The notes under the pieces were generated by a model that saw only the letters and a list, made by a program, of their open reading frames with translations, made no database searches and had not been told where the DNA came from. From a virus (Duplodnaviria; Caudoviricetes): DNA of 64,000 nt. Each line of letters opens with the position of its first letter. The first letter of the stretch is position 1. Positions 1,573 to 34,312 of this stretch are shown here, in pieces. The position numbers and the translations under genes were made by a program. Location of the stretch: the IMG/VR virus record IMGVR_UViG_3300028410_000746. The stretch is one strand, 5' to 3'.

Positions 1573-1610
1573 TTGAGACGTCAAGTGGGCGCGGTACCAC
1601 AGAGTAAGAG

Positions 1611-1703
1611 TTGGTAAAGTAAAACGGCGAACCTCATGCTAACAGGATTCCCCTTATGAATCAAGGAGTTAGGTACACTTCCGAAGGCTTGAACATTTGA
1701 AGA
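1611..1703 (+). promoter_or_regulatory. CRISPR leader copy (array-1 family)
   Basis: 77/93 nt identical, ungapped, to the reverse complement of 22491-22583; the last 36 nt are identical. Confidence 0.9.
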
Positions 1704-1732
1704 GTGTTCCCCGCGCGAGCGGGGAAGTTCCT
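1704..1732 (+). CRISPR. Solitary type I-E repeat
   Basis: GTGTTCCCCGCGCGAGCGGGGAAGTTCCT; 24/29 to the array-1 repeat, stem intact, no second repeat 32 nt downstream. Confidence 0.85.
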
Positions 1733-1772
1733 ACCTTCTACTACGACCACACCTTCTGTGGGGGATGAGACC

Positions 1773-1970
1773 ATGAAGATCAAGACACGGATTCAGCGAG
1801 ACGACAAGCCCACGGTCATCATCCGAATCGTCCGCACGGAAGATGGGACGGTCACGTGGCAGAGCAAGATAGCACGCACGGGTCGAATCATCGGCACCGG
1901 TACGTGCGATACGGTCGAAGATGCGCTCCTGGAATCGTCCAAGGGGATGTTCGAGGTCCCTGATTCATGA
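1773..1970 (+). CDS. Hypothetical protein (65 aa)
   Basis: ATG after GGGGA; stop overlaps next start (ATGA). Confidence 0.55.
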   Translation: MKIKTRIQRDDKPTVIIRIVRTEDGTVTWQSKIARTGRIIGTGTCDTVEDALLESSKGMFEVPDS

Positions 1971-22609: not shown

Positions 22610-24817
22610 TCAGGAGGCCTTCTTGGTGGGGGCGCGGTAGTAGGTGCGCGTCCACTCCATCTGCGTCTGAGAGCCCCAGGTGAGGAGGCTCAGGATGAGG
22701 TCGTTGGCGTCGGCACCCTGACCCTCAATGCGTCCGAGGACGTTGCGGAGCTGGCGCCAGTGGCCGTTCAAGGTGCCTCCCGAACACAGGCGCTCGAACG
22801 AGCGCTCCTTGATGTCACGAGACTGCGCGAGGACGCGCGCGACGGGGCGGTTGCCCTTGAAGCCGGTGGGCTTGAGGCCCGCGAGCAGGACCGCCAGGAG
22901 GAACACGCGCTCCTGCAACTCGGGGGCGTTCTCACCAAGGTTACGCTCCACCACCTTCTCCAGGGCCTTCTCCAGCAGGATGGCGGGGCGCATGTAGCGT
23001 ACGTCCTGGAGGTTCTTGGCGCGAGAGAGCGCGACGCGGCCGGAGCCCTTGTCGTGGTGGAGGTTGCGCCACCACTTGTGGACCACGGAGAGGATCTCAT
23101 CCTTGTGGGCGTATACGATGTTGTTCATGGGGTTCTTCTCTCTCTTGGTGGAGGTGCCGCAGAGTTTGAGGAGCTGCTTTTCGAGCCCGGCTCGTTCCCT
23201 CACGGCGGATGTGATGGTGCGGGTGTTCATGCGCGATTTGCGAGTGACACGGCCTCCAACGAGGGAGTCGAAGATCGTGAGCGCGGTGGTCGCGAGGAGG
23301 CGCTTGTAGGGCGTATAGACCATCTCCTCAAGCTCCTCCCGGTTGGTCGTGAGCTTGACCTTGGCGAGCGCGTCGTATGCAGCCTGTTCGGTGTGTGACC
23401 ACAGCTCGGAGTTGTTCCGGCCTCCCAGGCAGGCGACCTTCGCGCGGAGCACCTTATCCACCTCGGACGTGAGCTTGACCAGCGCCCCGAAGGTGTCCTC
23501 ATCACGCAGAGCCTGTGAGCCCTCGAAGATGAAGATGTACTTCTCGAAGAAGCTCACCGTCTTGCCCGCAAACATGTTGAATCCGAAGACACGCAGCGGG
23601 GGAAGCCCTCCCCATACCTCATCCCAATGCTCCGCGACCTCATCGTACAGGAAGGCCTTGCGCTTGGTGTGGGTGATGATTGGGGGCGTGTGGAGGGTCT
23701 CGGAGTAGGCGTGGGAACCCAGAACGTTCCACGTGCGCCTGTTGGTGACGGTCTGCACAGCGCGGACATCTTTCACATCTTTGGGGGTCCACTTGCCGTT
23801 GACGCCCATCGTCTTGAGGTTCTTGAGGGTGGTGGCGTTGTTGGGGAGCTGCCAGACACCCGACATGGGGATGCACTGACGAGACCCCGGCAGACCTTCC
23901 CACTTCTCGGACTGCGCTGTGTAGCGCTGCCGGTTGCCCCAGGGCTGCGCATCCACGTAGTCCAGGAGCCCGTCCTCATCCGGCTCCGGCAGGACCCACT
24001 CACGCGTGAGGTGCCAGAACGCGGTCAAGGGGTGGTAGTCCAGGTCGTGAGCGCGCCACCCCTCGATCTGACTCTCTTCGACCCAGGGGAACTCGAACTC
24101 GGGGACGGTCTCCTGTCCCCACAGAGCGTTGATTTCAGGTTCAGTGAGGATGTTGTTGAGGACCTCCTCGCAGAGGTCGCGGCCGCTGAAGACGTACCAC
24201 AGGCTGCCGTTGTTTCCGTAGCCGGGTCGCGATGTGCCACGTGAGAACTTGTTCCCCGCGTCCATGCGAAACTCGGCCGCCAGGATGAACGCGATGGCGT
24301 CCCCAGGCGTCAGACGCTGCCGGGGATCACGGCCCAAGTCCATGCTGAAGGGGAGCGGCCGCGTGACCTTCTCCGAGTCGAAGTCGAAGCCTGAGGAGGA
24401 GGACCCCAGCGCGTGCGTGTTGAAGCGGTAGCGGCCTATCTCAGTGGCGCACGGCAGGTCGGACTTCTTGATCTTTCTGATATCTTCGGTCCACTCGCGC
24501 AAGGCGGGCGTGGCCTGGAACGCACGGTACCCCGGCCCGTAGACGTCGAAGAAGTCTTCCTCACTCAGAAAGCGCTTCTTGAAGTCGAGGTTCTCGCCGC
24601 GCGTCAGGTGCATCTCGACCCACTCGTCGTCGTCCTTGGGCGCGGCCACCGTCTGGACCAGTGCCTGAATGAAGTGTCGGACGCCCTCATTCATTACGGA
24701 GTGGGGGTAGTCGAGCTTGAGGCCGGGTTCCGTGAACTCGTGCGGTCGGATGAGCTTGGACTTTCCCGTGGCGTCCTGAACCCGAATCCAAGCGTCGGTC
24801 ATGAGATTGAGTGACAT
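22610..24817 (-). CDS. cas8e-cas11: Cas8e (Cse1)-Cas11 (Cse2) fusion protein
   Basis: N-term MSLNLMTDAWIRV (Cse1-like). C-terminal ~170 aa WWRNL...GRVALSRA...ERSFERL...WRQLRNVL...DLILSLLTW...EWTRTYY (Cse2-like). No stop codon between them. Confidence 0.85.
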   Translation of the reverse strand: MSLNLMTDAWIRVQDATGKSKLIRPHEFTEPGLKLDYPHSVMNEGVRHFIQALVQTVAAPKDDDEWVEMHLTRGENLDFKKRFLSEEDFFDVYGPGYRAFQATPALREWTEDIRKIKKSDLPCATEIGRYRFNTHALGSSSSGFDFDSEKVTRPLPFSMDLGRDPRQRLTPGDAIAFILAAEFRMDAGNKFSRGTSRPGYGNNGSLWYVFSGRDLCEEVLNNILTEPEINALWGQETVPEFEFPWVEESQIEGWRAHDLDYHPLTAFWHLTREWVLPEPDEDGLLDYVDAQPWGNRQRYTAQSEKWEGLPGSRQCIPMSGVWQLPNNATTLKNLKTMGVNGKWTPKDVKDVRAVQTVTNRRTWNVLGSHAYSETLHTPPIITHTKRKAFLYDEVAEHWDEVWGGLPPLRVFGFNMFAGKTVSFFEKYIFIFEGSQALRDEDTFGALVKLTSEVDKVLRAKVACLGGRNNSELWSHTEQAAYDALAKVKLTTNREELEEMVYTPYKRLLATTALTIFDSLVGGRVTRKSRMNTRTITSAVRERAGLEKQLLKLCGTSTKREKNPMNNIVYAHKDEILSVVHKWWRNLHHDKGSGRVALSRAKNLQDVRYMRPAILLEKALEKVVERNLGENAPELQERVFLLAVLLAGLKPTGFKGNRPVARVLAQSRDIKERSFERLCSGGTLNGHWRQLRNVLGRIEGQGADANDLILSLLTWGSQTQMEWTRTYYRAPTKKAS

Positions 24818-24858: not shown

Positions 24859-25569
24859 TCAGAGCGTGTGCATGTGGGCGCTAAACTCGCGCCGCACCTT
24901 GTGGGACCCTTGACGGGTCAGATCGTGGGGCACATCACGACGGAAGGTTGACCGTCGGCTACCTTCGAGGCCAAAGTCTTCATCCCAGAACACCTGTCCC
25001 GGCACCACGGTTCGGTCAAGGTAGTAGAAGCTACTCGCCACGGCCTCCTCCAGACACTCACGCGGCGTGGTGGACTGTAGGACCCGTGGATTGAGAGGCG
25101 CGCTTGGCGGACAGCTCTTGCGGCCAAAGTAGATAGGCCAGTAGGGACGCTGGAGCGCCGCGATGATACCGTCGACGTCCTCGTCGGGTACCTGGAGCAG
25201 GACCACCCAGGTCTGGTCCTGGAGGTAGTACCTCTCCGAGGTCAGGGAGTCCGTCTTGGGGCTTTGCGGGTCCAGCTCCTCCTGGCGCGTGGTCACGTAG
25301 CCCTTGAAGCAGCGGATGAGGTGGTAGTCTCGAAGCGGCGGGGGGCTCACCGAGGCTCCCTCAAGCTGGAGCTGGACGCACGCCATCTTGATGGTGTTTG
25401 CCAGCCTCTGGTGGTGAGCCTGATCGTCACGCTCGATGCCTTGCGCGCACGCGATCATCCCGAGTATGGCCGATTTCGTCGGGCTCTGGTCCGTCGTGCG
25501 CAGCGCCGCGCGCGCCGCGTTTCCGAAGCTCATGAGAGGGGCTCGAATGTCGCAGGCGAGTGTTTGCAT
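24859..25569 (-). CDS. cas5e: Cas5e (CasD)
   Basis: APLMSFG...RTTDQSPTKSAILGMIACAQGIER...RYYLQD...YFGRKSCPP. Confidence 0.95.
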   Translation of the reverse strand: MQTLACDIRAPLMSFGNAARAALRTTDQSPTKSAILGMIACAQGIERDDQAHHQRLANTIKMACVQLQLEGASVSPPPLRDYHLIRCFKGYVTTRQEELDPQSPKTDSLTSERYYLQDQTWVVLLQVPDEDVDGIIAALQRPYWPIYFGRKSCPPSAPLNPRVLQSTTPRECLEEAVASSFYYLDRTVVPGQVFWDEDFGLEGSRRSTFRRDVPHDLTRQGSHKVRREFSAHMHTL

Positions 25570-25577
25570 AGGTACCT

Positions 25578-25623
25578 CCTTTGTGGTACTCAAAAGATAC
25601 CACAAGGTTCAAGATGGGGTCAA
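25578..25623 (-). promoter_or_regulatory. Internal promoter for cas5e-cas8e/11 overlapped by an inverted repeat
   Basis: TTGACC-N18-TATCTT with CCTTGTGG; TTGTGGTA-N9-TACCACAA spans the -10 and abuts the AGGAGG RBS. Confidence 0.6.
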
Positions 25624-25633
25624 GTGGTTCGAT

Positions 25634-26365
25634 TCAGAGGGCCACAAGGGCGGCGGCGGGCTTGAGAAGGACAAGGCCGGCCCCGAAGGCCTTGCCCCGA
25701 CCGATGCCGTTGCGCCACAGGGTCACGAACTTCTCGGGGTCGGTGACCTCGACGCGCGCCTCAAGCTGCACGAAGTCCATCGTAATGGGGTTGCGCCGTC
25801 CCACGCCCTGCTCGGAGAACACGGGGGTCAAGGCGGTGACCCTGTGCAGCTTGAAGCCGCCGTCCTCCGAGCGCCTCTCAAGCCACTCGAAGAGGAGGGC
25901 GTCGAGGTCGCGAGGCGTCTCCCCATTCGCTTCGCACATGAGCTTCTCGTAGGTCTGGAGACCCAAACGCTTGGAGCGCCCCTTGGGCACGATCCGCTCG
26001 TCACGGGTACAGACGGTGGCGTTGACCCATGCTCGGAGGTCGAGGCCGGCACCCATGTGCATCGTGGGCTGCTCGATCGTCTTGGTCAGAAGCTTCACGT
26101 AGCCGTGAGGGTCCGAGGGGATCTCCGTGGACTGGATGTAGAAGGAGGAGCCCTTGAAGGGGGTGAACATGAAGGGTCGGTCTTTGCGGTCCTCCACCGG
26201 GTCGAAGAGGTCCCAGACGAACTGGTGTGCGGTGTAGATGCCCTCGGACGTGTAGCGGGAGAGCTGCTCGATTCCCTTGGCCGTGAAGGTGGCGCGTGAG
26301 ATGTAGAGAGGGGTCGAGGTGGGGGGTGTGGTGGTGTTGAACGGGATGTTGACTTGCGTGCTCAT
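25634..26365 (-). CDS. cas6e: Cas6e (CasE) crRNA-processing endonuclease
   Basis: YTAHQFVWDLF; Gly-rich loop GIGRGKAFGAGLVLL; GGAG-ATG at 26365 (the track start at 26593 overextends). Confidence 0.95.
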   Translation of the reverse strand: MSTQVNIPFNTTTPPTSTPLYISRATFTAKGIEQLSRYTSEGIYTAHQFVWDLFDPVEDRKDRPFMFTPFKGSSFYIQSTEIPSDPHGYVKLLTKTIEQPTMHMGAGLDLRAWVNATVCTRDERIVPKGRSKRLGLQTYEKLMCEANGETPRDLDALLFEWLERRSEDGGFKLHRVTALTPVFSEQGVGRRNPITMDFVQLEARVEVTDPEKFVTLWRNGIGRGKAFGAGLVLLKPAAALVAL

Positions 26366-26375
26366 TGATAACTCC

Positions 26376-26403
26376 AAAAATACCCCCGCACGAGGCGGGG
26401 AGG
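26376..26403 (-). terminator. Repeat-like hairpin plus U-tract upstream of cas6e
   Basis: CCCCGC-CTCGT-GCGGGG followed by GTATTTTT. Confidence 0.5.
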
Positions 26404-26407
26404 TTGA

Positions 26408-26436
26408 GAGGGGACCCCCGCGTGAGCGGGGAAAGG
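26408..26436 (-). repeat. Degenerate CRISPR repeat between cas7 and cas6e
   Basis: CCTTTCCCCGCTCACGCGGGGGTCCCCTC; first 21 nt match the array-2 repeat at 19/21. Confidence 0.75.
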
Positions 26437-26441
26437 GGCAC

Positions 26442-27788
26442 TCACTCGGCGGCGGCGGTCTCGGAGGCCTCCACGGCGATACCGAGCGTCTGGTAGATGG
26501 CATCCACGATGTCATCCAGGGTCGTACACACCTCGCCGCCCGACTCCAGGGCCGTGAGGTCCTTGGTCGAGGACCACGTGAGGACACGCTCATGGTCGAC
26601 GCCCACGCGGGTCACGATGCGGTTGTGGTGGTCCTCCAGGCGCGTGAGGGCCATCTGAAGAGGATCGTTGGACTCCACAGGCACCAGGAACGCGTCGGTG
26701 TACTGAGTGTTCTGGGTCTCCCCGATGGTCACCATCAGGTAGGGGGACGGGATGCTCGCAGCCATCGTGGACTGGTTACCCGAGGGGCGCACCATCACGA
26801 GAGCCTTGACGAAGGCGTGGATGGTCTCACGGAGGAGGTCCTCCTGACCGCTCCCGAAGCGGCGAGCCAGCTCACCGATGTGGAGGCCCACGTAGGCGTA
26901 GTTGACGCCCGAGGTGAAGCTCTTGTGGCCCATATGCGAGGCGCCCGTATTGGAGTTGAAGCAGTCCTGAGCCGAGAAGAAGTCGTCCTCCTCGGGCATC
27001 ACGCCGACGCCGATGGTGTGCGCGAACTGGACGCAGGCCGCTTCATTGTCCTGTGCGAGCTGCGCGACCATGCGGCCGAAGAGGCTCACGTCGACGTTGG
27101 GCATCCTCGTGAGGTCCGTGAAGCTCTTCGCGGTCTCAGTCAGGCTCTCGAAGACGACGGAGGGGTCCGTGAAGTCCAGACCCACCAGCGCCTCGAAGCC
27201 CAGCGTCAAGACCTCCTGCTCCGCCTGCTTGAGCTTGATGGCCGAGCCGAACATGCGGCCGTCCTTCTTGTCGCTCTTTTTGTTCTTCTTCTTCTTGGTG
27301 TCTCCTTCGGACTCGTTCGACTCGTCGTCGAGAGCGTCCTTGGTCGAGTACGGCGTGATGCCTCCCTCGGCGTACAGGGTACCATCCGCGATGAGGCCCT
27401 TGAGGAGCGTGAGAAGCGCCGCTTCGGTCTTCTTGGTGAGCTTGGCGCCCTTGAAGCACTGCGTGAAGAAGTTCGGCGTCGTCATCATGTAGGCGAGCAG
27501 CGCGGCGGCTCGATACGACCTCTCAGCCTCCTGGCCCGCCTCGACGGCCTTCTCACTCTTGAAGACCAGGAACGATCTCGTGTTGTCGCTCATGACCTTG
27601 CGCTGACGGAGCACATCGAAGTGCATGGAGGCACGAATCGCCGCCTTCTCCGCTTGGCTGGAGATGCGGTAGCGCATGGCGTTCCCGAAGAAGGAACTCT
27701 TGGGGTTACCCGCGTCATCGCGGTTGATGTTGCTGGGGGGCAGCACACCGAGCATGTGGAACTGGAGCTTTGTTTTCACGTTCATCAT
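26442..27788 (-). CDS. cas7: Cas7e (CasC)
   Basis: HMLGVLPPSNINRDDAGNPK...RISSQ; DVSLFGRMVA; QFAHTI; EDDFFSAQD; TSGVNYAY. Confidence 0.97.
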   Translation of the reverse strand: MMNVKTKLQFHMLGVLPPSNINRDDAGNPKSSFFGNAMRYRISSQAEKAAIRASMHFDVLRQRKVMSDNTRSFLVFKSEKAVEAGQEAERSYRAAALLAYMMTTPNFFTQCFKGAKLTKKTEAALLTLLKGLIADGTLYAEGGITPYSTKDALDDESNESEGDTKKKKNKKSDKKDGRMFGSAIKLKQAEQEVLTLGFEALVGLDFTDPSVVFESLTETAKSFTDLTRMPNVDVSLFGRMVAQLAQDNEAACVQFAHTIGVGVMPEEDDFFSAQDCFNSNTGASHMGHKSFTSGVNYAYVGLHIGELARRFGSGQEDLLRETIHAFVKALVMVRPSGNQSTMAASIPSPYLMVTIGETQNTQYTDAFLVPVESNDPLQMALTRLEDHHNRIVTRVGVDHERVLTWSSTKDLTALESGGEVCTTLDDIVDAIYQTLGIAVEASETAAAE

Positions 27789-27859
27789 GTCTGGACTCTC
27801 ACTACAGTGGGTAAAAGGACCTTCGAGCTTTCAGAGGCTTCGTGCCTCGACGGAAACGA

Positions 27860-27915
27860 CACTAACTCCGATGTTAGAGCAGTGTCAAGCGGTTTCTTTA
27901 ACGCTTGACACTGCT
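27860..27915 (-). promoter_or_regulatory. 14-bp inverted repeat containing a putative cas7 promoter -35
   Basis: AGCAGTGTCAAGCG-N10-CGCTTGACACTGCT; minus strand reads TTGACA-N18-TAGTGT. Confidence 0.55.
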
Positions 27916-27935
27916 GTGCGGTATGAAAAAAAGAC

Positions 27936-30566
27936 CTAGAGGACTTGGAGTCCCAGGATGTGGTCGTAGATGAGGGTGACGGATACCGGGGCGCCCTTGG
28001 GGGAGAGCTTGGTCATGTTGACCCTCCACGCGTCGGCGGGTGCGCTGAGGTCGTCCACGGTCACGATCAACACGGAGTCGGTAGAGTGGAACGGGAGCTG
28101 CGCCAAAAGTTCGTGCTGCTCCGGGCTCGGGTCGAGCCGCTCTCCGGCCATGTACATGGGGATAGCGATGCCAGAGGCCTTGATGCCTCCGTTGTGGATA
28201 CGCCGGAGTCGATCGCCGTCAACGAAGTGGACCTCCCAGATGCACGTAGGGATGGCGTCTCGGGTGTGTATGGCCACGTTCTTACCCCACTTGCTGACCG
28301 ACTCACGGTAGCTGCGGGTGAAGTCGAGAGACCCCAAAACAGCCGATGCTCGCGTCTCCTGGTCACGGGCGGTGGAGGCTTGGTGCGAGCGGGCCAGACC
28401 GGCCGGAATCAGTGCGTTGATGTCGTCCAGGATCTCACGCGTATGGGTGGGAAGCTCCCAGGACCTCAAGGCACACATCGCCGCGCTGGCGTACACACGG
28501 CCTGCATCCCCATAGACGTAAGATGTCCCCCCATGATGAGGGGAGCCGCTGAGCCATTGAGCGTGTGGAGTCCCGGCCAAGGAGGGCGTGAACAGGCCCA
28601 TCTCGACGTGCACCTCTTCCCCACTCTCGTGACGCAGGACGCGACCCGAGCGCTGAATCAGGAGGTCGGCCTCGCATACATCGGAGACGCCCCAGTCAAA
28701 GCTGACATCCAAAGACTCCTGGAGCACCTGCGTGCATATGACGATGTAGCCCTCACGCTCTTGGGGATCGGCGCCCTTACCGAAGCGACGCAGCACCTCG
28801 GCGTCACGTACCTCACGGTGTCCGACCGTGTAGCGAGAGTGCAGCAAGAGCACTCGGTCATACCCTGACAAGGCTTCATAGGCCGCACAGGCGGCGCGCA
28901 CGGTGTTTCGGAACCACACCACCGCCTCACCTCGGTTGGCTCGCCGGTGCAGCTCTTCCACGATGGGGTCGAGCCCACGCCGATCCTCTTCAAAGACGTT
29001 CCAGTGCACGTGCCGGATCTGGTGTGCGTCCACCGAGACCACGTTGATGTGGCCGCTGGAGCTGACGTGCGTGAGCGCGGGCAAGGGGACATCGGGGAGG
29101 TCTACAACCTCTCCTCGATACGCGGAGGCGAGCGCGCGGCGTGTCTTGGAGTCGCAGGTGGCGCTCATGGCGATCACGGGCTGTCCCTGTCGCCCGCAGT
29201 AGGCGAGCAGGTTACAGAGCAGAGGGAGCATGTGAGCGTCGAAGGCGTGGACCTCATCTATCAGAAGCACGGTACGGGTGAGCGCGCTCAGTCGCATGGG
29301 CGCAAAGTATCGCCCGATCGTCGCCAGGAGGGCTTGGTCTATTGTGCAGACATTGATTTGCGAGAACATGCTCTGTCGGGAGGACTTGAGCAGCCACTCG
29401 GAGGCGCTAATCAGGCCTCCATTCGAGTTGCGTTGAGCCTTCCACGGCTTGAATTCACTTCGAGTCGAGTGAATGAGCGCCATCGTGACGGGCTCATCAA
29501 AGGTTGCCTCCGTCCAGGCGTGCGCACGCCCGTAGAGGCCGTTGGCGGTAGCGCGAGTAGGCAACGCCAACGTCAGCCCTTTGTAGTCGCCATCACGCAT
29601 CATCTGACGCGCGAGCGCGAGCCCTACCTCCGTCTTACCCGCCCCCGTAGAGGCCTCGATGAGGACAAACCCGTCCGCAGAACTCAAGAGGGTCTCAGCA
29701 CCTACCTGGAGAGGCCGAGGTTCCCAGGTATCGTCGAGGAGACCGCTCCAGAAGGAGTAGGTGGTAGAGAGGGGCGTGTAGAGGATCTCCACGTCTGTAC
29801 ACGCCCTCTCCGCTTGAGGCTGTGCGATGGTCTCCCAATAAGCTCTCGGGTCCATACGCGCGCCACGCAGCGGGAAGTATTCAGGCGTGGAGCCCAGCCA
29901 ATCCGAGATCATCCCGACGCCCGCCAGGAGGTAGCTCGCGAAAGGCAGGTCCGGAGGGTTGGAGTAGTCGCCACGCATGGGTCCAAATACGCCCTGGATG
30001 ATTTCGGAGAGGTACGCAGTCAGGCGCTCGTCGCACCCAGGCACTCCCCACTGGAGCTGAGCCGTACGTGGGGTGGCGCCTTCTCGCTTCTGATGAGGCA
30101 AGGCGTAGCCGTGATGGCTCAGCGCGCTATGCAGCAGCGTCGTGATGTGGCGTCGTTCCTGACGCCCAGTACCGCTCTTGAGGTACTCCCGGATCACGTT
30201 CCTGCGTTCCCATCCCACCAGATCGTGACGGGCTTCGGTCTCACGCGCACCATCAGGCTGGGGGGTGATATCCAGGAGCGTACAGGCGGGTGCGCTTCGA
30301 GCCTGGAAGTTGTCCGTGAGCTTACCGATGTCATGGCAAGCGTAGAGCATGGGGAGGTCATGCCACAGGTCGTACATGCTCACACCCAAGGCCTCCGACA
30401 AGGGACGCCACCAACGCTCCTCGTGCCTGAGCAAGTGATTCACGACCGCCGCGACGTCGAGGTTATGATACACCACGCGGTGAATGGCAGTCACGGCCTC
30501 TTGTGAGCCGGGAGGCTGGTCTGTCTTGGCCCAACAGTCCCACATACCGATAGGTTTGGTCGTCAT
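27936..30566 (-). CDS. cas3: Cas3 HD nuclease-helicase
   Basis: YHNLDVAAV, CHDIGK, SHHG; EASTGAGKTE, IDEVH, MSAT, TQVLQESLDV, QRSGRVLRH. Confidence 0.98.
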   Translation of the reverse strand: MTTKPIGMWDCWAKTDQPPGSQEAVTAIHRVVYHNLDVAAVVNHLLRHEERWWRPLSEALGVSMYDLWHDLPMLYACHDIGKLTDNFQARSAPACTLLDITPQPDGARETEARHDLVGWERRNVIREYLKSGTGRQERRHITTLLHSALSHHGYALPHQKREGATPRTAQLQWGVPGCDERLTAYLSEIIQGVFGPMRGDYSNPPDLPFASYLLAGVGMISDWLGSTPEYFPLRGARMDPRAYWETIAQPQAERACTDVEILYTPLSTTYSFWSGLLDDTWEPRPLQVGAETLLSSADGFVLIEASTGAGKTEVGLALARQMMRDGDYKGLTLALPTRATANGLYGRAHAWTEATFDEPVTMALIHSTRSEFKPWKAQRNSNGGLISASEWLLKSSRQSMFSQINVCTIDQALLATIGRYFAPMRLSALTRTVLLIDEVHAFDAHMLPLLCNLLAYCGRQGQPVIAMSATCDSKTRRALASAYRGEVVDLPDVPLPALTHVSSSGHINVVSVDAHQIRHVHWNVFEEDRRGLDPIVEELHRRANRGEAVVWFRNTVRAACAAYEALSGYDRVLLLHSRYTVGHREVRDAEVLRRFGKGADPQEREGYIVICTQVLQESLDVSFDWGVSDVCEADLLIQRSGRVLRHESGEEVHVEMGLFTPSLAGTPHAQWLSGSPHHGGTSYVYGDAGRVYASAAMCALRSWELPTHTREILDDINALIPAGLARSHQASTARDQETRASAVLGSLDFTRSYRESVSKWGKNVAIHTRDAIPTCIWEVHFVDGDRLRRIHNGGIKASGIAIPMYMAGERLDPSPEQHELLAQLPFHSTDSVLIVTVDDLSAPADAWRVNMTKLSPKGAPVSVTLIYDHILGLQVL

Positions 30567-31247: not shown

Positions 31248-31580
31248 AGGAAAACCCCACGTGTGTGGGGAAGGGGCGCGTAACTGCGGGGGAGGTCGTA
31301 GGAGCAGGGGAACATCCCCGCGTGTGCGGGGAAGGGCAACTGTATCAACTCAGCGTCCGGGAGTACGTGGGAACATCCCCGCGTGTGCGGGGAAGGGTTT
31401 TTGGGCGATCTTGCCCCTTTGGATGATCGGGGAACATCCCCGCGTGTGCGGGGAAGGGTTGAGCGTGTCGGCGGCGTCGTCGAGGGCGTAGGGGACATCC
31501 CCGCGTGTGCGGGGAAGGGGCGCTGACGCGCTCCCCCAAGACCGTGATCGTGGGGACATCCCCGCGTGTGCGGGGAAGGG
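31247..31580 (-). CRISPR. CRISPR array 2: 5 repeats plus 1 degenerate trailer, 5 spacers of 32 nt
   Basis: Repeat CCCTTCCCCGCACACGCGGGGATGT(T/C)CCC with a 61-nt period. Confidence 0.98.
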
Positions 31581-33712: not shown

Positions 33713-34312
33713 CCTTTCCCCACGCACGTGGGGATGTTCCCATGTAGCAAGACATGTAGTAGGAGGCGCTGGGCCTTTCCCCACGCACGTGGGGATGTTC
33801 CCTACAGGAGTTCCTTGGGGGCTATCTGAGGGGGCCTTTCCCCACGCACGTGGGGATGTTCCCGTGGGGCGGTCTGGATGAGGCAGGCATCCTCACCTTT
33901 CCCCACGCACGTGGGGATGTTCCGCGTCCGCATCAAGGGCCGCAACCTGGGTGGGCCCTTTCCCCACGCACGTGGGGATGTTCCCTCACCTCGAAGGGTC
34001 CCCGCCCCCTCAAAGTCCCTTTCCCCACGCACGTGGGGATGTTCCCTTCCTCCAGGATCTCAGTGTCTTCGGGAACGTCCTTTCCCCACGCACGTGGGGC
34101 TGTTCCTGTTCCTGTTCCTGTTCCTGTTCCGCCTTGGCTCCCAGGACCATCGCTCGTGACGAGCCCTTCCCCGTACACGCGGGGGTGTTCCCTCTGTGCT
34201 ACCGCAGCGTCGACCTTGGCCCCCTTCCCCGCACACGCGGGGATGTCCCGTCCAAAATCGTCCGTGGTCCCCCGTGAGGCCCTCTTCCCCACGCACGTGG
34301 GGACTTTGTTCC
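33713..34312 (+). CRISPR. CRISPR array 3: 10 repeats, 9 spacers
   Basis: Repeat CCTTTCCCCACGCACGTGGGGATGTTCCC. Repeat 7 is expanded by CTGTTC x5; the last three repeats diverge. Confidence 0.98.

Follow-up and report, generated by a model that had tools for sequence, protein, structure and literature searches.

The window analysed here, a stretch of 64,000 nucleotides, is part of a 125-kb IMG/VR virus record that CheckV estimates to be 27% complete; a 373-kb assembly also carries the same phage, a huge phage from a lake. Its minus strand encodes a type I-E interference module in the order cas3-cas7-cas6e-cas5-cas8e::cas11, with all genes on that strand. After cas3 (27936-30566), the unit opens with cas7 (26442-27788, 448 aa; Pfam PF09344, 5.6e-58), which ends in a TGA stop codon at 26444-26442. 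It continues with cas6e (25634-26365, 243 aa; Pfam PF08798, 1.8e-22; start codon ATG at 26365-26363) and cas5 (24859-25569, 236 aa counted from its ATG), and its last gene is cas8e fused to cas11 (22610-24817, 735 aa; PF09481). The fusion is a single open reading frame both in the window and in the sister clade described below (11700-13877 in L007), and a Cse2 domain lies at residues 621-711 of the relative's orthologue. At least five arrays with slightly differing repeat variants are scattered over the 125-kb record. No Cas1 was detected, either in this record or in a relative whose complete genome has 437 kb.

Because the Cas6e of a relative aligns from residue 1 of the 243-aa protein, and because a Shine-Dalgarno sequence, GGAG (26372-26375, minus strand), stands 6 nt upstream of its ATG, we regard the cas6e start as fixed. 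An N-terminally extended Cas6e (open reading frame 25634-26593), for which the sequence between cas7 and cas6e would be coding, was rejected on the same grounds. The protein keeps the G-rich loop, and its His47 falls on the catalytic His20 of E. coli CasE (PMC5965381), a match that is read from the offset of the alignment ranges (query 36-236 on CasE 9-198) and not from a printed residue alignment. Judged by its sequence, this Cas6e is apparently catalytically intact.

The gap between cas7 and cas6e (26366-26441, minus strand) is 76 nt long, non-coding, and holds two hairpins, H1 and H2, both of which have the CCCCGC/GCGGGG arms of the phage's own type I-E repeats. H1 (26410-26436, minus strand) is a degenerate type I-E repeat that reads, in order, CCTTT, CCCCGC, TCAC, GCGGGG and GTCCCC; its hairpin proper (26416-26431) has 6 bp and a UCAC loop, and its isolated fold is worth -13.1 kcal/mol. 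It is identical to the first 21 nt of the array-2 repeat at 19 positions, the count that an earlier note on this DNA had given for the stem region. The 5-nt flank CCTTT is that of array 3, and the arms are those of arrays 1 and 2. Where nearly all array repeats have an AT directly after the stem (AU in the 5′ handle), H1 has a 2-nt gap, beyond which GTCCCC matches the 3′ part of the repeat. A 15-nt linker (26415-26401, minus strand), the first six bases of which are the GTCCCC tail of H1, separates the two stems. H2 (26383-26401, minus strand) consists of CCCCGC, CTCGT and GCGGGG at 26400-26384, with a 5-nt CUCGU loop and a U·G closing pair. Its arms are followed in order by G, the T-rich tail TATTTTT (26376-26382, minus strand), GGAG, 6 nt and the cas6e ATG, and the distance from the end of its stem to the ATG is 18 nt. 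The coordinates and sequence of the gap hairpins given in the earlier note are accurate when read on the minus strand, and so is its description of a second CCCCGC/GCGGGG hairpin with a U-tract immediately before the cas6e ribosome-binding site.

From the cas7 stop codon onward, both hairpins are predicted to form. When the 3′ end of cas7 is included in the fold, alternative pairings compete with them, and the 101-nt stretch is no more stable than its dinucleotide shuffles (z = -0.7). Because the gap is 100% identical in all four copies of this phage (the window and the copies L002, L003 and L004), there is no covariation within its clade.

We built a covariance model of the repeat from 23 array repeats of the window's phage and one relative. 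Array repeats score 37-45 bits under this model, as against 20.4 and 25.3 bits for the degenerate repeats at the ends of arrays 2 and 3. H1 falls in the range of these terminal repeats, with 23.2 bits (E 8.6e-5) over its full length on the sense strand, and on this score it qualifies as a degenerate type I-E repeat. H2 reaches 7.9 bits (E 6.4) and does not qualify by sequence, a low score that reflects its 5-nt loop and unrelated flanks; all array repeats have a loop of 4 nt, and none has one of 5 nt. The earlier description of both hairpins as repeat-derived is therefore upheld for H1 by the covariance model, and for H2 by its identical arms and its position but not by its sequence. An Rfam search of the gap returned no match, and short repeat families miss the Rfam threshold even for true repeats. 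The window contains 26 copies of the motif CCCCRC-N3-6-GYGGGG, 130-fold more than the expected 0.2, and only three of them lie outside the arrays: H1, H2 and a leader-linked solitary repeat at 1704-1732. The gap does not contain a CRISPR array, which would have unique spacers of about 32 nt; its stems start 31 nt apart, as opposed to 61 nt in all arrays. With its two stems only 15 nt apart, the gap cannot give rise to a guide RNA.

The solitary repeat lies in a region with a layout of its own. At 1594-1775 (plus strand), about 125 nt of the array-1 leader recur at 85% identity, ahead of one full repeat (32.3 bits). After that repeat stands an imperfect 5-nt-loop hairpin (1747-1763); 9 nt further on is the ATG of a 65-aa open reading frame, followed by one of 292 aa, and neither frame has a Pfam match. 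Protein genes here seem to have a CRISPR leader and repeat for their 5′ region.

Exhaustive profile searches recovered a single related clade, whose Cas7 proteins are 34-39% and whose Cas6e proteins are 38-39% identical to those of the window. This sister clade comprises four strains of huge phages: L005 and L029 (from one sample), L024, L031 and L007, the last from a complete 437-kb phage with terminal repeats. The unusual gene order cas3-cas7-cas6e-cas5-cas8e::cas11 is common to the window and to all of these loci. A BLAST search of the cas7-cas6e region against 50,697 phage records gave no match, nor did a single-protein search of IMG/VR with Cas7 or a search of 185,579 prokaryote genomes with a Cas6e profile; a word-based search for Cas6e homologues returned only the query itself. 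The lineage of the window's phage is known only from metagenomes. The long Cas7 homologues P0021 and P0129 and the viral contig L008 belong to canonical type I-E loci and were set aside as relatives.

In all members of the sister clade, a true CRISPR array occupies the cas7-cas6e gap on the coding strand (9402-9733 in L007, 5101-5315 in L024, 5107-5321 in L031, 1-203 in L029 and 7842-7931 in L005). A leader of 45-55 nt follows the cas7 stop codon, then come three to six repeats of 29 nt with spacers of 32-33 nt, and the cas6e ribosome-binding site stands directly after the hairpin of the terminal repeat. In L029, this terminal hairpin is CCCCGC/GCGGGG and lies 18 nt from the cas6e ATG, arms and spacing that are those of H2; in L007, L024 and L031 it is CCCCAC/GTGGGG and lies 19 nt from the ATG. 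The stem has thus undergone a compensatory G-C to A-U change between strains of the sister clade, and the intergenic sequence is otherwise no longer alignable between the two clades. Conservation in related phage loci, by which the earlier note had proposed that its idea be judged, speaks in its favour, in that a Cas6e-type hairpin has been preserved in the relatives at 18-19 nt upstream of the cas6e ATG. The sister clade also has a second array between cas6e and cas5 and a third after cas8e; by contrast with the hairpin at cas6e, the terminal hairpin before cas5 lies about 60 nt from the cas5 start. Strains with 89% identical Cas7 have entirely different spacers, indicating that these arrays are living and fast-changing. 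This turnover takes place despite the absence of Cas1 from the complete 437-kb genome, and host enzymes or recombination may supply the spacers.

Because the relatives carry a real array at this very position, with its terminal hairpin 18-19 nt from the cas6e ATG, the reading of H1 and H2 as the spacer-less remnant of a collapsed intra-operon CRISPR array is well supported, and we conclude that H2 is the positional counterpart of the relatives' terminal repeat. This origin, which is the central point about the gap, had escaped the earlier note. Such a collapse is plausible, since two repeat hairpins only 21 nt apart, with no spacer between them, lie inside another array of the same phage (G000 23133-23169, outside the window). 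The reverse polarity, in which arrays have grown from solitary hairpins, is possible.

We next consider how the unit may be transcribed. In the relatives, a near-consensus promoter (TTGACA-18-TATAGT, 11/12) lies in the cas3-cas7 gap; no other strong promoter-like site is present on the same strand of the relative from cas3 through to the end of cas8e. The window has a candidate promoter of the same geometry (TTGACA-18-TAGTGT, 27859-27888, minus strand); its -10 element is weak, with a 3/6 match, and the promoter scan did not call it. The position of cas7 at the head of the unit, as stated in the earlier note, fits both the promoter of the relatives and this candidate. The cas3-cas7 gap of the window also contains a perfect 14-bp palindrome with a 10-nt centre (27877-27916, minus strand), the right arm of which holds the TTGACA of the candidate promoter; this palindrome, possibly an operator, is absent from the sister clade. 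The stretch from H2 to the ribosome-binding site is too short for a promoter, and we therefore infer from the layout that cas6e is transcribed through the hairpins. A further promoter-like site (TTGACC-18-TATCTT with a TG, 25594-25623, minus strand) lies in the cas6e-cas5 gap, and cas5-cas8e may have a transcription start of their own; this gap also contains a 9-bp hairpin that ends in the cas5 ribosome-binding site. In the sister clade (L007 7820-7879; also L005, L024 and L031), the cas7 transcript has at its 5′ end a solitary repeat-like hairpin, whose loop is 5 nt long and which comes immediately after the promoter. The outer pair of this hairpin changes from C-G to U-A between strains (one compensatory change), and the hairpin is followed by AUGAUCCC, which resembles a crRNA 5′ handle.

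H2 is called terminator-like both by a consensus scan and by our own stricter scan (7 pairs, -12.3 kcal/mol, tail TATTTTT). It has the GC-rich stem of at least 5 bp and the subsequent U-tract of an intrinsic terminator, a consensus match only, and the consensus scan finds such sites at about the rate seen in shuffled sequence (7 versus 6.2). Eight stringent terminator-like sites occur in the 125-kb record. Three of these combine a repeat hairpin with a T-rich tail, namely H2 itself and the terminal repeats that close arrays 2 and 3 (31255-31270, minus strand; 34286-34303, plus strand). Same-strand genes start 57-59 nt beyond the tails of the latter two. The strong terminators of this phage have stabilities of -22 to -27 kcal/mol, as against about -12 kcal/mol for H2. 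None of the relatives has the T-rich tail, although all keep the hairpin, so termination cannot be the conserved role of the hairpin. H2 has the appearance of a terminal repeat that also serves as a weak terminator, and leaky termination at this point would fit a lower need for Cas6e than for the six-copy Cas7. The terminator-like call thus agrees with the suggestion in the earlier note that H2 is an attenuator, but the stem is weak and the relatives have no U-tract, making attenuation at most a feature of this phage.

Would Cas6e act on these hairpins? Among 23 aligned repeats, the stem is followed by a nearly invariant A22 and by invariant U23 and G24; in place of A-U-G, H1 has G-U-C and H2 has G-U-A. 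One array repeat of the window and one of L007 likewise have a G at +1. For T. thermophilus Cas6e, a 21-nt stem-loop suffices, and any +1 base is cut, with A the best (PMC3683919); the +1 G of H1 and H2 is therefore compatible with cleavage. After cleavage, Cas6e remains on the upstream hairpin, and the downstream RNA begins with a 5′-OH (PMC5965381). Because cas6e appears to be transcribed through a substrate of its own product, action of Cas6e on its own mRNA is plausible; we found no case of natural Cas6e action on cas mRNA in the literature searched, coverage of which is incomplete. H2 is the sole repeat-type hairpin with a 5-nt loop in the 125-kb record, and in this record and the 437-kb phage together the only such hairpins are H2 and the cas7-leader hairpin of the latter, a tiny sample which hints that 5-nt-loop hairpins in cas leaders are a specialised class.

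In the uncut RNA of the window, GGAG is predicted to pair with CUCUC (26406-26410) across H2, with a mean unpaired probability of 0.16. This pairing is predicted here but is not conserved in the relatives, where the unpaired probability is 0.36-0.76, and we therefore keep sequestration of the Shine-Dalgarno sequence as a low-confidence idea. With GGAG paired to sequence upstream of H2, a cut could even activate cas6e translation. The earlier note had proposed that Cas6e cuts its own mRNA as negative feedback. The cut is plausible, with the hairpins on the sense strand and before the ribosome-binding site, but nothing points to the negative sign; a cas6e mRNA with a 5′-OH and a free 18-nt leader could as well be stabilised or activated.

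Together, these observations suggest that Cas6e probably processes the messenger RNA that encodes it. Our best explanation of the gap as a whole joins two events, processing of the cas7-cas6e message by Cas6e at the hairpins and leaky termination at H2, and we hold this combination tentatively, at somewhat less than an even chance. According to this explanation, this lineage of huge phages keeps a CRISPR array within the type I-E operon, on the coding strand of the cas7-cas6e gap, and the cas6e message carries Cas6e's own recognition structure. Cas6e would bind and cut at the 3′ base of one or both hairpins. Of the two products of the cut, the cas7 mRNA would end in a hairpin still bound by Cas6e as a 3′ cap, and the cas6e(-cas5-cas8e) mRNA would begin with a 5′-OH and an 18-nt leader. 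In this phage, the T-rich tail of H2 would probably stop a fraction of the transcripts, lowering cas6e relative to six-copy Cas7. We count against this explanation the lack of A-U-G after H1 and H2, the z of -0.7, the T-tail that is not conserved, the 7.9 bits of H2 and the weak -10 element of the window's cas7 promoter. The relatives' hairpin beside cas6e could also be simply the end of an array in a compact genome.

A related proposal, which we regard as somewhat unlikely, has Cas6e double as an RNase that cuts the cas operon into separate messages. By cutting at the hairpin kept 18-19 nt before the start codon, Cas6e would make the 5′ end of its own mRNA. In this phage, the cut would also free the Shine-Dalgarno sequence from the CUCUC upstream of H2, a self-priming switch with positive feedback, and the hairpins would have been retained after the collapse of the array that first supplied them.

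The hairpins might instead be an inert relic, left when the array collapsed by repeat-repeat recombination and merely tolerated in the mRNA. A relic could well lack 2 nt of the handle, as H1 does, or have an odd loop and unrelated flanks, as H2 does; repeat tandems without spacers are found at another place in the same phage, many cas loci have sporadically given rise to standalone repeat-like sequences (PMC10120712), and the copies of the phage offer no sequence variation that would reveal selection. However, both stems are perfect 6-bp copies of the repeat arms though the intergenic sequence of the two clades no longer aligns, and three sequence versions preserve the distance between hairpin and ATG; we therefore consider an inert relic unlikely. 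It is distinctly unlikely, in our estimate, that the hairpins serve solely as a terminator and stabiliser, with H2 leaky and both hairpins protecting the 3′ end of the cas7 mRNA for a high Cas7:Cas6e ratio, and with no role for Cas6e. The 7 pairs, -12.3 kcal/mol and TATTTTT of H2, called by both scans, are what such a role predicts, similar tails occur on the terminal repeats of arrays 2 and 3, and transcription of the genes further on could be supplied by the promoter-like site of the cas6e-cas5 gap. Yet the T-tail is missing in all relatives that keep the hairpin, H2 is far weaker than the strong terminators of the phage, the consensus scan performs about as it does on shuffled sequence, and termination does not need arms identical to a Cas6e substrate.

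Negative feedback of the kind that the earlier note had in mind would also result from translational autorepression, in which Cas6e binds H2 without cutting it, given the 5-nt loop and the +1 G, and blocks the ribosome at GGAG 8 nt downstream. The hairpin abuts the ribosome-binding site of cas6e specifically, that before cas5 in the relatives lies about 60 nt away, and the only 5-nt-loop variants of both genomes are in leaders of cas genes. We nevertheless give autorepression little weight, because the relatives have a normal 4-nt loop and an A at +1 at the cas6e site, which should be cut, and because a +1 base of any kind is accepted by the T. thermophilus enzyme (PMC3683919). A solitary repeat unit carried by a phage can function as an RNA anti-CRISPR (PMC10651486), and other solitary repeats are present in this phage, so the hairpins could conceivably be a Racr-type decoy that soaks up host type I-E Cas6e or Cascade subunits. 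This is very improbable for hairpins that lie inside the phage's own cas message, beside the cognate cas6e and with no promoter of their own, and whose arms are those of the phage's own arrays. Two repeat-like units in a cas intergenic region also recall the published mini-arrays of the CreR/CreA type (PMC10120712; bioRxiv 10.1101/2023.03.10.532045), from which a short guide represses a cas promoter. Here, the likelihood is vanishingly small: the 15 nt between the stems, minus an 8-nt handle and a 5-nt repeat flank, leave a "spacer" of about 2 nt, a geometry that excludes a CreR-type guide from the gap, and the handle bases are not kept.

Several known systems share features with this gap. Like intrinsic (Rho-independent) terminators and attenuators, H2 is a GC stem with a T-rich tail inside an operon; unlike them, its stem is a CRISPR repeat hairpin, it is weak (-12 kcal/mol), a ribosome-binding site follows immediately, and the tail is not conserved. 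Qi and colleagues reportedly engineered, in 2012, Cas6f (Csy4) hairpins that cut operon mRNAs into independent cistrons. Translational repression based on Cas6f is likewise a synthetic device (PMC13478208). As in these Csy4/Cas6f devices, a Cas6 hairpin stands here between two cistrons or beside a ribosome-binding site, where the nuclease would set the mRNA ends or block initiation. Unlike the synthetic devices, the arrangement proposed here would be natural, and the regulated cistron encodes the nuclease itself.

Standalone repeat-like sequences are common in cas loci, and those of type I-E mostly take the form of mini-arrays between cas3 and cas8, whose spacer directs Cascade to a promoter (PMC10120712). 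The gap hairpins resemble these standalone elements and mini-arrays (Shmakov et al. 2023, PMC10120712; CreR, bioRxiv 10.1101/2023.03.10.532045) in being degenerate repeats of their own locus, between cas genes, with a probable role in cas expression. They differ from the published type I-E mini-arrays in that the element has no spacer, is on the sense strand of the mRNA, sits between cas7 and cas6e where it abuts the cas6e ribosome-binding site, and corresponds to a full array in relatives. With the solitary repeat units and RNA anti-CRISPRs (Camara-Wilpert et al. 2023, PMC10651486) they share the character of spacer-less phage repeat hairpins that are expected to bind Cas6-family proteins; unlike Racrs, which mimic host repeats and inhibit the host system, they lie in the phage's own operon and match its own arrays. 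[quoted passage not shown] 2020, PMC7162821), which makes no mention of arrays set between cas genes or of repeat hairpins at ribosome-binding sites.

If Cas6e does act on these hairpins, it would be a natural CRISPR nuclease that shapes the mRNAs of its own operon, including the one that encodes it. Operon mRNA shaped by such a nuclease has so far been exploited only in synthetic biology, and we found no instance for a native type I-E system in the literature searched. Should Cas6e further prove to be the RNase that divides the operon into separate messages, the arrangement would be a natural counterpart of the synthetic Csy4 operon insulators. Because arrays are interleaved with cas genes in one transcription unit, crRNA production and the maturation of cas mRNA would be the same reaction. 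The phage of the window is informative in this respect: its guides are gone from the gap while the hairpins remain, and a possible role in mRNA processing may thus be seen there apart from guide production.
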